5,077 bases of DNA from a virus (Duplodnaviria; Heunggongvirae; Uroviricota; Caudoviricetes). The notes beneath the pieces are model-generated. The model was not told where the DNA came from, ran no database searches, and worked only from the letters and a program-made list of their open reading frames with translations. Numbering within the stretch: position 1 is the first letter of the stretch; every line of letters starts with the position of its first letter. Of this stretch, positions 1-3,994 are shown in pieces. The stretch is from the IMG/VR virus record IMGVR_UViG_2681813201_000009; one strand, 5' to 3'. Made by a program: the position numbers and the translations under genes.

Positions 1-3000
1 TTTTGACAATATCGCCTTCAATCTGGTTGGCTGACAGTTTCCCCTTAATCTGACAGTTCTCATTAATCGTGACGTTGTTGAGCGTCCCTGAGTTCGCATT
101 CACACTGCCACTGATATCCGCATTTTTCGCCGTCAGTCGCCCGTCCGGCGTCAGGGAAAATGCCGGAGGATTGCCGGATGACGTGATACTCACCGCAAAC
201 AGCCGCTTCAGGAACACATCGTTCATGAACAACTGATTCCCCTGCGCCACAAATAACGGCGTGCTGTTGCCGTTCTCCGGATTTATCATCGCGATACGGT
301 CAGCCAGCAGCAGTATGTTGCTCAGTGGCTGGCCATCAGTATCCTCAATCCCTGCACCAATCCCGGCCACATAGGGAATGCCGTCTTTCGTTTTTTGAAC
401 CTTCAGCATGTACAGCGCAGCCAGGTCATCATTTGTGTCCTTCTGCACGCGCTGTATCTGCTGAATGGTGGCGCTCTGGTCTTCCAGCGTTTTACTGACC
501 GTCTGTGTGATTTCATTGCGGGTTTCGGTGATGGAGGTCTTCATCTCCGCCATCTCATCCGCAAGCTGGCTGTTATCTATCAGCTCCCACAGCCCCTGAG
601 CCAGATGCAGTTTTCCTATTTTTTCCCGAAACAGCCCCAGATACCCTTCTGCATCATTGCTGGCCCGTCCACTGGCTTCCACAAAAGCAGATTTACCCAC
701 CAGGTTGACGCTGCGCACATAAAACCAGAAATCCTTTCCGGGCTTAATGTGCGGACCGGAGACACTCCACTGACTGCCGGTCCCCAGATAACGGGCAGAG
801 GTTTCCACCTGTGCGGCGTCTGCAATTTTTGCCTCCGAAAACCAGAACTCAAACTGCACCGTCGGGTCATAAATGGTCAGTTTCGGGACTGCCGTTATCT
901 GAAAATACCCCGGCGTCAGTTCAACACCGGCAGGCGCTGCCGGTGCGTTAATCCGGAACGTGGTGGTGGCGGGTTCGCCCTGCTGGCCATAGCTGTTAAT
1001 CGCCCTGACTGTCAGGGTGTATTCCCCGAGAGGCAGGCCACTGAAACGGTGCTCCGTATCGGCAGTGATGGCGGTGGTCACCAGACGGCTGTCTTCTCCG
1101 CTTCCGCTGGTCAGGCGCAGACTGAAGCGCACACCCTTCACCACCCGCGGCGTGTCCCATTTCGCCTGTGCCAGATACTGACCGTCAGCCGCGCTCACCT
1201 CCACCGTCAGGTGCTGCACAGCCGGCGGGATGACGCTGTTCAGCGAACCGGACAGTGGCTCAAAGCTGGCCCCGTTATCCACAATGGCTTCTTTTTCCGG
1301 TACGTGCTGCACCGCCGTGATGGCAAAGGTGCCGTCCGTGTTTTCCCGGATGGAGACACAGCGGAACAGGCGACGACGCAGTGACGGCAGGGAGAGTCCC
1401 CATACACCGTATGTCTCCACACCATCAGGCAGGGTGCTGACCTGTATCCGGTCCGGCGCGGGGTGTGCGGTGATGTCCACACTCACCGGCTTACCGCTGC
1501 CGTTAATCAGGTTCACCGTGGCGGCACCTGTCTCCGGCAGGGTCACCTCACGGTCCAGCGTCAGGGTGCGGGTGGCAGCATCAATGGACAGGACACGTCC
1601 GCCGGTCAGGGTCCCGGCATAGTCATTATCACAGATTTCAATAATGTCACCGGGTGTGTGCCGCAGCCCCTGAGACCCGAGCGTGAAATCCACCGTCTGC
1701 GTTTCCAGCAGTTCGGTCTTTATCACCCACAGTCCGGCACGGTGGGCCTGACCGCGGCTGGTACAGCCGAACGCGTCCATCTTCAGCAGGTTGCGTCCGT
1801 AGCGCAGTATGGCTTCCGGGTCTTCCACCAGTTCCGTGGAGGTCTGCCAGCCGTTCTGCGGGTCGGTGTAATTCACCTCCACCGCCGTGTGGCGGTCCTT
1901 CAGGGCGCTGAAGCTGTAGCGGAACCCCACGCCGTTATCATCCACCACCACATCGCTGTTGGTGTACGGCAACACCACATCCGACGGACGGTCCTGAACG
2001 AACGTCAGCGTCTGGCCGTTCCATACCGGCATACAGCGCATCGCCGAGCAGAAATCACTGAGAACGTCCCACGCCTTACGCTGTTGTGACAGGTACGCAT
2101 TAAAGGTCATCCGCGGCTCTGTCCCTCCGAAGCCGTCCGGGACACGCTGGTCACAGTACTGCCCGATGGCATACAGCGCCCACTTGTCCACATCCGCGGC
2201 CCCCAGGCGTTTTCCCATGCCGTAGCGCGGGTGAGTCAGCATGTCCCACAGGCACCAGGCCGGGTTGTTGCTGTATGCCGGTTTCAGGCTGCCGTCCCAG
2301 ATGCCGCTGTACGTGCGTTTTTCCGGGTCATAGTTTGACGGTACCTGAATGATGCGACCGCGGATATGGTAGTTCACCGTCATCTGCTGGCCGCCGAACT
2401 GCTCCGCATCCACCTGCAGCCCCACAATGGCCGTGTTCGGGTAGCACTGTTTCACATCGATGATTTCGGTGTATGACGACCAGAGCGTCTTATTCTGCAG
2501 CTGGTCCGTGGTGCTGTCCGCCGTCTCCCTGACCATCCGGATGTTAAAGGGGCGGGGAGGCAGATTATCCAGAATCACCGAAGCGAGGAACTGTGAGGTG
2601 GTCTTGCCGTTAATGGTGACATCCTTTTCCGTCACCCAGTTACCGTTACGCTGCAGCTGAATCAGCAGGCGGACGGATGCCGGGTTACGGTCACCCTGTG
2701 AGGTGGTCTGCACCAGTGACTGCACCCCGAAGGTGACCCGCAGGCGGTCAATGTTCGCGGACGTAATGGTGCGCGTCACCGGCTTTGCCTTCGTCACTTC
2801 CACGCCCAGTGCGGTTTCAGAGCCGGATGACTCAAAACCTTCCGGCGGTGTCTGCTCCTGCTCCCCGGCGCGCCAGACCGCGGTCACACCGTGTATCACG
2901 GGATTGCCGTCCGTGTCCGTCAGTGGGGTTTTGTTCACCAGAATACTCTGCAGCCCCTTCACCGGACCTTCAATCGGCCCTTCACCAATGGCGTCAATCA

Positions 3001-3076
3001 CGCTCATCATCTGCGTGGACTTAAGATTGTCCTTTGCCTCTACCGGCGTGTGCCCCTTGCCGCCCCCTTTACCCAC
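1..3076 (-). CDS. J: Host specificity protein J / central tail fibre (tail tip), N-terminal ~1025 codons; the C-terminal receptor-binding end lies beyond position 1
   Basis: Hand scan of the minus-strand frame (plus-strand triplets starting at positions congruent to 2 mod 3) from 2 to 3076 found no TTA/CTA/TCA, i.e. no in-frame stop. The N-terminus reads (V/M)[37 protein letters not shown]... and the window-edge end reads ...[21 protein letters not shown]; both resemble lambda J as I remember it ([24 protein letters not shown]... and ...ENCTINGTLRAEKIVGDIVK). Start is GTG at 3076..3074, with an in-frame TGA upstream at 3152..3154 and no in-frame ATG between. It is missing from the ORF track because there is no stop inside the window. 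Confidence 0.9.
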
Positions 3077-3080
3077 TCTG

Positions 3081-3092
3081 TCCCCCTCTCCT
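3081..3092 (-). promoter_or_regulatory. Shine-Dalgarno region for J (minus-strand AGGAGAGGGGGA, 4-11 nt upstream of the GTG start)
   Basis: The reverse complement of 3077..3093 is caggagagggggacaga, immediately followed by GTG. Confidence 0.5.
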
Positions 3093-3116
3093 GTCTGATG
3101 TCTGAATCTGTTTATG

Positions 3117-3150
3117 CCAGAAAACAACAGGCACCCCGGAGGGTGCCTGT
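3117..3150 (-). terminator. Candidate rho-independent terminator on the minus strand (10-bp GC-rich stem, 4-nt loop, then U-rich tract)
   Basis: Plus-strand 3127..3136 acaggcaccc and 3141..3150 gggtgcctgt are perfect reverse complements around loop cgga. On the minus-strand RNA the hairpin is followed by UGUUUUCU (plus 3117..3126). It begins 1 nt after the stop of the small ORF (3152..3154). There is no T-tract on the plus side. Confidence 0.45.
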
Positions 3151-3151
3151 G

Positions 3152-3271
3152 TCATGACGGAATAAAATTTCTGAAACTCTTCACATTTCCGGCAATTGCC
3201 TGTAGCCGCAATAATGACGCTGCATTACTTTTTTGATGCCTGAAAAATAACTCCATAACGTTAATCTTCAT
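3152..3271 (-). CDS. Small hypothetical protein, 39 aa (MKINVMELFFRHQKSNAASLLRLQAIAGNVKSFRNFIPS), in an AT-rich I-J insert; moron candidate
   Basis: ATG at 3271..3269 is preceded by GGGAGAG (plus 3276..3282) with a 4-6 nt spacer. 39 sense codons end at TGA 3152..3154, which directly abuts the terminator hairpin. Local GC is about 38% (50/130 counted for 3151..3280) against visibly GC-rich flanking genes. It is below the length cut-off of the supplied ORF track. No homology is recognised; a short ORF in AT-rich DNA can arise by chance. Confidence 0.35.
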   Translation of the reverse strand: MKINVMELFFRHQKSNAASLLRLQAIAGNVKSFRNFIPS

Positions 3272-3279
3272 CGTTCTCT

Positions 3280-3317
3280 CCCGCAGCTCCGCTAACTCTG
3301 CGGGATTTTTTTATTTT
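3280..3317 (+). terminator. Candidate rho-independent terminator on the plus strand (antisense to the late operon)
   Basis: Stem cccgcag (3280..3286) and ctgcggg (3298..3304) flank an 11-nt loop, followed by atttttttatttt (3305..3317). On the minus strand the same hairpin is preceded, not followed, by the A/T run, so it would stop only rightward (plus-sense) transcription. It lies between the I stop and the small-ORF Shine-Dalgarno. Confidence 0.4.
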
Positions 3318-3994
3318 CATCCCCGCCCGATAACCACCACTTTCCCGTCTCCGCCCTCATCACGGGTGCTGATGTCCTGGGATATCCGTCGTGAACCAAC
3401 CAGCATTTCACCATAAGGCACCGGCATCGGGTTCCCCTGGGCAATCATGTTATCCAGTGACGAAAAATACGTGTTCTGTTTACCGTTATCCGTCGCCCTG
3501 TACTCCGGTGTTTTTGCCTTCGGTGCCAGCATCTGGGCCACACCGCCCAGTATCATGCTGGCACCCAGTGAGAACAGCATCGTGGTGGCAGTCAGCCCTC
3601 CGGCACTCAGGGCTGCGCCCCACAACGCCATCGTTGCGCCGGCGGTGAAGAAAGAGCCCACGATGGCTGCTGCCCCCAGCACAATCTGCAGTCCGCCCTT
3701 TCCGGCCCCGGCCAGTCGCGGCACAATATGGATGACCGCCCCCTCACCCAGAGGTTCGTGAAGACGGGCGTACACCGCCTCCGGTGCCGTGTCCTCACCG
3801 CGAATACGTATCTGGTACCAGCCTTCGTTCATCTGACGGCGGAATCCCGGCATCTGCAGCGACAGGGCACGGATGGCTTCCGCTGCCGTGTTCACGTACA
3901 GGCTGAGGCGGCGGCCAAATCGTTGCAAATCCCCGTGAAGGCAGATGCGTGCCAGTGGCGGTGACGCCAGACAGAATGCGTTCGTCGTTGCCAT
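3317..3994 (-). CDS. I: Tail tip assembly protein I (N-terminal ubiquitin-like beta-grasp region, Gly-rich hydrophobic middle, C-terminal domain)
   Basis: ORF track 3317..3994 (-), 225 aa. N-terminus MATTNAFCLASPPLARICLHGDLQRFGRR... and C-terminus ...GEMLVGSRRISQDISTRDEGGDGKVVVIGRG resemble lambda I as I recall it. A GGGAGAGG Shine-Dalgarno (plus 4006..4013) sits 11 nt upstream of the ATG. Stop is TGA at 3317..3319. Confidence 0.9.
   Translation of the reverse strand: MATTNAFCLASPPLARICLHGDLQRFGRRLSLYVNTAAEAIRALSLQMPGFRRQMNEGWYQIRIRGEDTAPEAVYARLHEPLGEGAVIHIVPRLAGAGKGGLQIVLGAAAIVGSFFTAGATMALWGAALSAGGLTATTMLFSLGASMILGGVAQMLAPKAKTPEYRATDNGKQNTYFSSLDNMIAQGNPMPVPYGEMLVGSRRISQDISTRDEGGDGKVVVIGRG

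Follow-up and report, generated by a model that had tools for sequence, protein, structure and literature searches.

The I–J junction of the window

The window, a stretch of 5,077 nucleotides of viral DNA, contains the lambdoid tail genes L, K, I and J, all of which lie on the minus strand. The reading frame of J, taken from position 3076, continues for 1025 codons without a stop until the end of the window. Because gene I occupies positions 3317-3994 and J begins with the GTG codon at 3076, both on the minus strand, the gap between the two genes covers positions 3077-3316 and is 240 bp long (Table 1). The corresponding gap in lambda is 60 bp (I ends at 15444 and J starts at 15505), as had been correctly stated in the original prediction on this DNA, in which the junction was described as an AT-rich insert. 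The base composition agrees with this description, as the GC content is 0.38 over positions 3151-3250 versus 0.55-0.69 in the flanking tail genes. The heptamer that is found twice directly upstream of the ribosome-binding site of J differs in copy number between relatives, with four copies in L137 and none in several variant types.

Table 1. Features at the I–J junction; positions are those of the window
Feature	Position	Strand	Details
Gene I	3317-3994	-	
I stop codon	3317..3319	-	TGA
I–J intergenic spacer	3077..3316		~180 bp longer than that of lambda
Predicted sRNA gene, EcOnc22/PasB family	3217..3312	+	Covariance model, alignment to PasB, CRAC peak after coordinate offset
Probable -10 element	3210..3215	+	AATAAT; same aligned position kept in three otherwise divergent promoter types
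Conserved sRNA core, predicted single-stranded	3246..3271	+	AAUAACUCC...GUUAAUCUUCAU; conserved, without conserved pairing
sRNA intrinsic terminator	3280..3312	+	Stem CCCGCAG (3280-3286) / CTGCGGG (3298-3304), 11-nt loop, A and seven T (3306-3312)
39-codon ORF	3152..3271	-	Product MKINVMELFFRHQKSNAASLLRLQAIAGNVKSFRNFIPS
Most conserved block	3152..3189		TCATGACGGAATAAAATTTCTGAANNTCTTCACATTT; ~30-70 nt upstream of the sRNA start
Tail-sense terminator-like hairpin	3116..3150	-	ACAGGCACCC-UCCG-GGGUGCCUGU, then UGUUUUC; ~40-70 nt upstream of the J start
Heptamer TGTCTGA, two copies	3092..3105		Directly upstream of the J ribosome-binding site
J start codon	3074..3076	-	GTG; GGAGAGGGGGA ahead of it at ~3081-3092

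The spacer is 100% identical to that of phage VT1-Sakai, which is the Sakai prophage Sp15 of E. coli O157:H7, and likewise to that of a few other Stx phages. The same spacer is present in about 150 phage records with 73-85% identity to the one in the window, and approximately 800 of 5426 complete E. coli genomes (~15%) carry it, with a median of 3 and a maximum of 9 copies. The tail genes that flank it in the window show ~92% identity to those of Sp15 and 95.6% to those of phage CP-1639. With only ~92% identity to Sp15 in these genes, the window represents a different prophage that harbours the same cassette. A search for a conserved 24-mer of the spacer in one genome per species gave a single match, on a 460-bp contig of a marine bacterium; this is probably a contamination and is uninformative on the distribution. 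Among the variants, it is the middle of the spacer that differs strongly.

A predicted small RNA gene on the plus strand of the spacer

The plus strand of the spacer carries a predicted sRNA gene, which lies between I and J and is antisense to the tail operon. Its 3′ end falls within the T run at 3306-3312, which ends 4 nt from the stop codon of I. With a 7-bp GC-rich stem followed by U7, the end of the gene has the form of a Rho-independent terminator with a long U tract, the module that binds Hfq. Among 21 variants, the seven pairs of the stem are invariant save for one mismatch in one sequence, and the loop is hypervariable. Since there is no T run on the minus strand, this terminator should not halt tail-sense transcription. 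It is the second intrinsic terminator of the spacer and had been overlooked earlier.

Upstream of the gene, the hexamer AATAAT at 3210-3215 is probably the -10 element of the sRNA promoter, judging from its conserved place in the alignment. In other variants the hexamer reads TATAAT or TATCAT. The -35 region of the window is poor, whereas the E2348/69 type has a good promoter (TTCACA-16-TATAAT). Scanning both strands of positions 2800-3600 with the sigma-70 consensus returned no site; the original prediction had seen no convincing sigma70 promoter for the minus-strand ORF. A tail-sense candidate picked by eye, TTGCCG-17-AGAAAT, was considered as a promoter for a minus-strand sRNA and rejected, as it scores only 8/12. 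The 5′ end of the plus-strand RNA would be at ~3222 if transcription starts 7 nt past the -10 hexamer, or at 3237 when aligned to PasB of strain E2348/69; the hexamer sits 22 nt upstream of the published, approximate 5′ end of PasB. What is seen is thus a conserved -10-like hexamer without a consensus promoter call, and the published sizes of ~85 nt and 83 nt (see below) are compatible with a start set by 3210-3215.

What the variants retain in the body of the RNA is a run of U close to the 5′ end, together with the CU-rich core AACUCC...UUAAUCUUC. The consensus fold revealed no covariation or conserved pairing in the body, and the terminator stem alone is structurally conserved. The CUCC within the core is complementary to the Shine-Dalgarno motif GGAG, and we regard positions 3246-3271 as a candidate seed. 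Hfq-dependent sRNAs that act in trans are usually built in this way, with an unstructured body, a CU-rich core and a terminator. When the whole window was scanned against Rfam 15 (E <= 1), there was no match to any family, among them AgvB, AsxR and STnc100; Rfam 15 has no family for the EcOnc22/PasB RNA.

The predicted RNA belongs to the PasB family

PasB is an 83-nt sRNA encoded in prophage PP6 of the EPEC strain E2348/69 (NC_011601.1, 1466343..1466261, minus strand; Pearl Mizrahi et al. 2021, Sci Adv, PMC8550237, Table S6). It has been validated by Northern blotting, is Hfq-dependent and has 37 RIL-seq interactions, including core and accessory mRNAs, and its level is higher under non-activating conditions (PMC8550237). 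Its distribution is the subject of Zhu, Shabalina and Storz (2026, bioRxiv 10.64898/2026.05.13.724894). In E2348/69, the plus-strand genes I and J, with the end of I at 1466255 and the start of J at 1466496, enclose a spacer of 240 bp. PasB is encoded in this spacer in antisense orientation to the tail operon, and its 3′ end is 6 nt away from the stop codon of I; the predicted RNA of the window therefore has the same location and orientation as PasB.

The two spacers can be aligned from end to end. PasB corresponds to positions 3237-3312 on the plus strand of the window with 80% identity over 76 ungapped columns, and the window has an 8-nt deletion near the 5′ end. In addition, 18 of the 23 positions of the PasB Northern probe, taken as its reverse complement, agree with window positions 3284-3306. 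A covariance model was also derived from 13 variants of the spacer, from which the window's subtype was left out. In the window, the model found a sole match at 3217-3312 on the plus strand with 78.8 bits (E = 5e-16). The same place in Sp15 of Sakai was found with an identical score (78.8 bits, E = 5e-16), PasB of E2348/69 scored 115.3 bits (E = 2e-24), and lambda gave no match to this model. By homology to validated members, the RNA thus falls into the EcOnc22/PasB family. It shares with PasB the slot, the orientation, the terminator stem and the core motif, whereas the terminator loop differs and the window promoter, with AATAAT and a poor -35, is weaker by consensus. With ~80% identity, the 8-nt deletion and these differences in loop and promoter, the targets of the window RNA may differ from those of PasB.

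The identical Sakai spacer probably carries EcOnc22

EcOnc22 is described by Tree et al. (2014, Mol Cell, PMC4104026, Table S2) as an RNA of Sp15 on the plus strand, which is ~85 nt long on Northern blots and destabilised in a Δhfq strain; EcOnc23 (Sp14) and EcOnc24 (Sp11) are given there as its homologues. A table of that article names, among the most Hfq-enriched intergenic regions, ECs2161...ECs2162, which are J and I of Sp11, and ECs2942...ECs2945 of Sp15. The latter region includes the I–J spacer, and this evidence is given by gene name and is free of coordinates.

The coordinates of EcOnc22 were published on NC_002695.1, while our analysis used NC_002695.2. To place the peak we looked at the shift between both versions at other loci. 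At AgvB, the Rfam match is displaced to the right of the EcOnc01a peak by 137-146 nt, and the E2348/69 homologue of EcOnc42, at a distance of 21 kb from the spacer, calls for a shift between 119 and 218 nt. When a shift of 128-146 nt was applied, the CRAC peak of EcOnc22 fell at ~3228-3306 on the plus strand, within the predicted RNA. The peaks of EcOnc22, EcOnc23 and EcOnc24 occupy the same relative place in the I–J spacers of their three prophages. From this coordinate offset, rather than from a published sequence, we infer that EcOnc22 is the PasB-like segment and not the J-proximal part of the spacer. A Rho-independent terminator was not flagged for EcOnc22-24 by Tree et al. 2014 (PMC4104026).

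EcOnc22 and the window do not differ inside the spacer, and only the surrounding tail genes diverge, being ~92% identical. Both RNAs are encoded by the plus strand, in antisense orientation to the tail operon, and the ~85 nt of EcOnc22, which is Hfq-dependent and present in several prophage copies, fit the 76-95 nt predicted here. All these data make it highly probable that the spacer is a self-contained plus-strand sRNA gene of the EcOnc22, PasB family, antisense to the late tail operon. Most likely, the element in the window is thus an already described prophage sRNA.

A conserved block and a tail-sense hairpin precede J

The J-proximal third is the most conserved part of the spacer. The block at 3152-3189 is conserved also in the sample of loci that was selected by the I protein, where the search pattern did not force it. 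In variants with gaps of 421-715 bp, the 3′ portion of this block is found again ahead of every tandem module. Possibly, this block is an UP element or the site of a regulator.

Next to this block, a hairpin of 10 bp is formed by the minus strand at 3150..3127. It is GC-rich and is followed by TGTTTTCTGG, a weak U tract. This is the terminator-like hairpin that had been reported 1 nt past the stop codon of the minus-strand ORF, and it is indeed present. The fold at 3127-3150 has a z-score of -3.4, and the consensus fold contains 13 pairs, one of which shows a compensatory change from CG to UA in 3 of 12 variants. In sequence, the hairpin looks like a unidirectional terminator that would face the late operon. 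It may shield J and the genes downstream against transcription in the absence of Q antitermination; alternatively, its role may be to stabilise the mRNA that lies upstream.

A larger role of the spacer was considered on this basis, in which the 3127-3150 terminator and the antisense sRNA together would form a two-part device for the control of J, with the intact ORF possibly as a third layer. If so, transcription that is not antiterminated would be halted by the terminator directly ahead of J and of the cargo genes beyond it. After induction, the sRNA would bind to the junction of I and J in the late mRNA and set the dosage of J or the processing of the mRNA, and a translated layer could be added by the small ORF, which is intact in the subtype of the window. 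We consider this device unlikely.

The I–J junction is a recurrent cargo slot

We compared the gap in 67 close relatives in which both I and J were present in the locus. In 51 of them the gap is 234-260 bp long and holds one sRNA module. Three loci have a gap of 421-425 bp with two modules, and one locus has a gap of 715 bp with three tandem modules, which score 111.6, 75.2 and 31.4 bits. The remaining 12 loci, with a gap of 851 bp, carry an antisense Cu,Zn superoxide dismutase gene (sodC), assigned by its match to PF00080 (E = 3.9e-32). This sodC form has its own terminator and, downstream of it, a PasB-like segment (86.5 bits). Its homology to the RNA-only spacers sets in just past the -10 hexamer, in keeping with a start of transcription at this point. 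The comparison of the junctions thus revealed a variable slot with gaps of 234-851 bp.

The I–J junction is a recurrent slot for cargo, which can be an sRNA, tandem sRNAs or sodC. It may be regarded as a modular array of sRNA cassettes with one to three tandem modules that are exchangeable with sodC. As in the prophage sodC morons of the close relatives, which occupy the same I–J gap in the same antisense orientation and are followed by a PasB-like segment, the cargo of the window is antisense to the tail genes; in contrast to them, the window has no sodC and instead has the RNA module together with the tail-sense hairpin, which is absent from the sodC variant.

The original prediction had ascribed a moron architecture to the spacer. 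As a standard we applied the term in the sense that it is said to have in the work of Juhala et al. from 2000. The site corresponds to this architecture, as it is extra DNA (240 versus 60 bp) of distinct composition (GC 0.38 versus ~0.6) with signals of its own in a variable slot. Of the signals of an autonomous transcription unit, the terminator is clear, and the promoter is a candidate deduced from the -10 hexamer. The cargo, on the other hand, is an RNA gene, and a conserved protein-coding cargo was not found.

The sodC form also bears on whether the spacer might have no function at all. It could be the remnant of a decayed moron, for example of sodC, and the RNA could be noise or a leftover 3′ UTR that binds Hfq. 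Since the PasB-like segment lies downstream of the sodC terminator, the sRNA could have originated as 3′ sequence of sodC, and the high variability of the central part of the spacer is in line with such a decay. However, conservation of the upstream block, the core motif and the terminator extends over divergent spacer types, and some phages have tandem copies of the module. Moreover, the spacer is maintained in several copies in many E. coli genomes, and the RNA is abundant, stabilised by Hfq and rich in interactions in two pathotypes. A spacer without function is thus very unlikely.

The minus-strand ORF is not conserved as a protein-coding gene

The 39-codon ORF on the minus strand had been proposed to encode the cargo of the spacer. 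The ORF at 3152-3271 and the GGGAGAG upstream of its ATG are present in the sequence as described; the GGGAG motif is 5 nt upstream of the ATG and the putative ribosome-binding site covers 3277-3283. The product is basic and, read from its sequence, has no hydrophobic membrane-spanning stretch, in agreement with its earlier description as small, basic and without transmembrane segment.

To study the conservation of the ORF, we collected 118 loci via the conserved 24-mer and 80 loci via the I protein, which gave 59 distinct spacer variants with the element. The ORF is intact, with 39 or 41 aa, in 18 variants, including nearly all of the window's subtype. In 27 variants the same ATG is followed by a frameshifted or truncated frame of 10-54 aa with an unrelated C-terminus, and in 14 variants the ATG is changed to ACG or ACA. 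A frameshift, a premature stop or the loss of the start therefore affects 41 of the 59 variants, which is the outcome that the original prediction had named as speaking against a protein. In E2348/69, where the sRNA is abundant, the ORF has only 22 codons. Within the 39-aa class, the variable codons comprise 7 non-synonymous changes and 1 synonymous change, which gives no sign of purifying selection on the ORF.

Most variants retain the beginning of the ORF, with its ATG and first four codons (MKIN). However, the conserved start of the ORF, ATGAAGATTAA, is complementary to GUUAAUCUUCAU in the conserved core of the sRNA, and the GGGAG of the putative ribosome-binding site is the reverse complement of the stem of the sRNA terminator. 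The core and the terminator of the sRNA, which lie on the opposite strand, thus account for the conservation of the 5′ codons and of this site. Searches with the 39-aa peptide gave no Pfam family, and in PHROG only a chance-level match to a cytidyltransferase profile of 678 positions (E = 0.26). The coordinates of the ORF, the peptide and the names of the flanking genes are absent from the accessible part of the supplements of the Sakai Ribo-seq study on small genes (PMC5597208); this is a weak negative, because reads from repeated prophage sequence may have been discarded.

We found no evidence that the ORF at 3152-3271 codes for a protein; it is most likely a by-product of the terminator and core of the sRNA on the opposite strand. 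A protein moron, in which the basic 39-aa peptide is made from the late transcript or from a promoter of its own and confers a phenotype on the lysogen or the phage, could draw on the presence of the ORF, of the GGGAG motif and of the downstream hairpin, yet with the frame broken or without its start in most variants, the excess of non-synonymous changes and the empty database searches we regard it as extremely unlikely. The plus-strand ORF at 3114-3236 (40 aa) was likewise rejected as a coding candidate for lack of conservation: a +1 shift directly past the ATG is seen in the majority variant, and the E2348/69 type has no ATG. A PHROG search with its product returned nothing. Some phage records annotate 'hypothetical proteins' in the spacer, with inconsistent coordinates.

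An equally improbable reading is a type I toxin-antitoxin-like pair, possibly decaying, with the minus-strand ORF as toxin mRNA and the plus-strand sRNA as antitoxin: the sRNA at 3217-3312 does overlap the start of the ORF at 3271 and its putative ribosome-binding site, and a strong terminator follows directly past the ORF, but a conserved hydrophobic toxin ORF under the antisense RNA is lacking, the ORF is broken in most variants that retain sRNA and hairpin, the consensus scan gave no tail-sense promoter upstream of it, and the sRNA is Hfq-dependent with many trans partners. Hfq dependence and many trans partners are a better fit to a trans-acting regulator than to a dedicated antitoxin.

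Discussion

The plus-strand sRNA gene is the reading that best accounts for the I–J spacer. Its transcription would probably start a few nucleotides past the AATAAT at 3210-3215 and would end at the unidirectional intrinsic terminator with its U run, resulting in an RNA of ~76-95 nt. The RNA would be made in the lysogen from its own promoter and could dock on Hfq via the U tail and the terminator hairpin. The CU-rich unstructured core is predicted to pair with target mRNAs, probably at ribosome-binding sites, where CUCC could meet GGAG. After induction, an action in cis on the I–J junction is also possible, given the perfect complementarity of the sRNA to the late tail transcript. For the window RNA, expression, Hfq-dependent stability and interactions in trans are predicted from the identical Sakai sequence and from the homologue in EPEC.

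Other prophage RNAs to compare are the anti-sRNAs AgvB and AsxR and the convergent sRNA pairs at the PR′ moron site of lambdoid prophages (Tree et al. 2014). Like the predicted window RNA, they are short and prophage-borne, bind Hfq, have their own terminators and represent cargo other than protein at a site that tolerates insertions. They differ in being located downstream of PR′/Q and in their sequences, which are unrelated to the window RNA. AgvB and AsxR were rejected as the identity of the element, as they are found at the PR′ site and not in the tail operon and neither gave an Rfam match in the window. Both work as sponges of core sRNAs; the comparison with the window RNA is confined to the features named above.

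Parts of this description may be new. The equivalence of EcOnc22-24 and PasB is not stated in the accessible parts of PMC4104026 and PMC8550237 and may be one of them. The variants of the slot with tandem modules or with sodC may also be new, and the same may hold for the conserved tail-sense hairpin. The accepted view of how such elements work is unaltered by our results. They do correct a plausible mis-annotation, as the conserved product of the spacer is most likely an Hfq-dependent sRNA and not a hypothetical protein. In addition, they join two literatures, in which EcOnc22-24 of EHEC and PasB of EPEC are names for one and the same family.

Alternative contents of the I-J gap

Twelve of the 67 I-J loci (L138, L142, L150, L170, L172 and their relatives) have 851 bp between the stop of I and the start of J. 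This gap is occupied by an antisense sodC, encoding a Cu,Zn superoxide dismutase (PF00080, E = 3.9e-32), which has its own terminator and is followed by a PasB-like segment. When the sodC form was compared with the RNA-only spacers, the shared sequence was found to start directly 3′ of the −10 hexamer of the sRNA. In four other collected loci (L184, L187, L189 and L192), the gap contains two or three sRNA modules in tandem, and every one of these modules has a separate terminator and one copy of the AAATTTCTGAANNTCTTCACATTT block. The three copies in L192 scored 111.6, 75.2 and 31.4 bits with the covariance model of the sRNA family.

Immediately upstream of J, the conserved tail-sense hairpin shows a compensatory change from CG to UA at one pair, and it is absent from the sodC variant. 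The heptamer TGTCTGA is present twice at 3092-3105, adjoining the J ribosome-binding site on its upstream side; four copies were observed in locus L137, and the repeat is missing from several variant types.

Features in the window and in the collected relatives
Feature	Location	Strand	Remarks
Terminator-like hairpin, tail-sense, conserved	window 3116-3150	(-)	inside the late operon
Tandem sRNA modules	L184, L187, L189		I-J gap 421-425 bp
Tandem sRNA modules	L192		I-J gap 715 bp
'Hypothetical proteins' in spacer	L002 (phage 1720a-02) 1633-1785		database annotation
'Hypothetical proteins' in spacer	L003 (PhiR12_1) 1602-1700		database annotation
Homologue of E2348/69 sRNA linked to EcOnc08/21/42	L126 (Sakai Sp15) 34156-34337	(+)
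Rfam STnc100 match	L126 (Sakai Sp15) 34338-34547	(-)	176.7 bits; adjoins the preceding homologue

Database annotations and a single distant match

The coordinates and frames of the 'hypothetical proteins' annotated in the 1720a-02 and PhiR12_1 spacers disagree, and these entries probably reflect annotation errors across the sRNA gene. Among one-genome-per-species contigs, the conserved 24-mer gave a single match, in a 460-bp contig of the marine bacterium Parendozoicomonas haliclonae (L125, NZ_FWPT01000051.1). This very short contig probably represents E. coli prophage contamination of the assembly.

Comparison with Sakai prophage Sp15

A convergent sRNA pair, which served solely for coordinate calibration, lies downstream of stx1B in Sp15 (34156-34547). 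In the window, J (1-3076, minus strand) is an unbroken reading frame of 1025 codons; the Sp15 annotation splits the corresponding region (9219-12691) into two truncated, overlapping CDSs. The long form of I comprises 225 aa from the ATG at 3994 and shares about 100 nt with the end of K (3892-3994, minus strand), an overlap that lambda also has. For Sakai I, RefSeq holds a shorter version of 579 nt, whereas the long form is found in GenBank AP000400. The window and Sp15 are 100% identical within the spacer and about 92% identical elsewhere, which suggests that recombination moves the spacer cassette separately from the tail genes.
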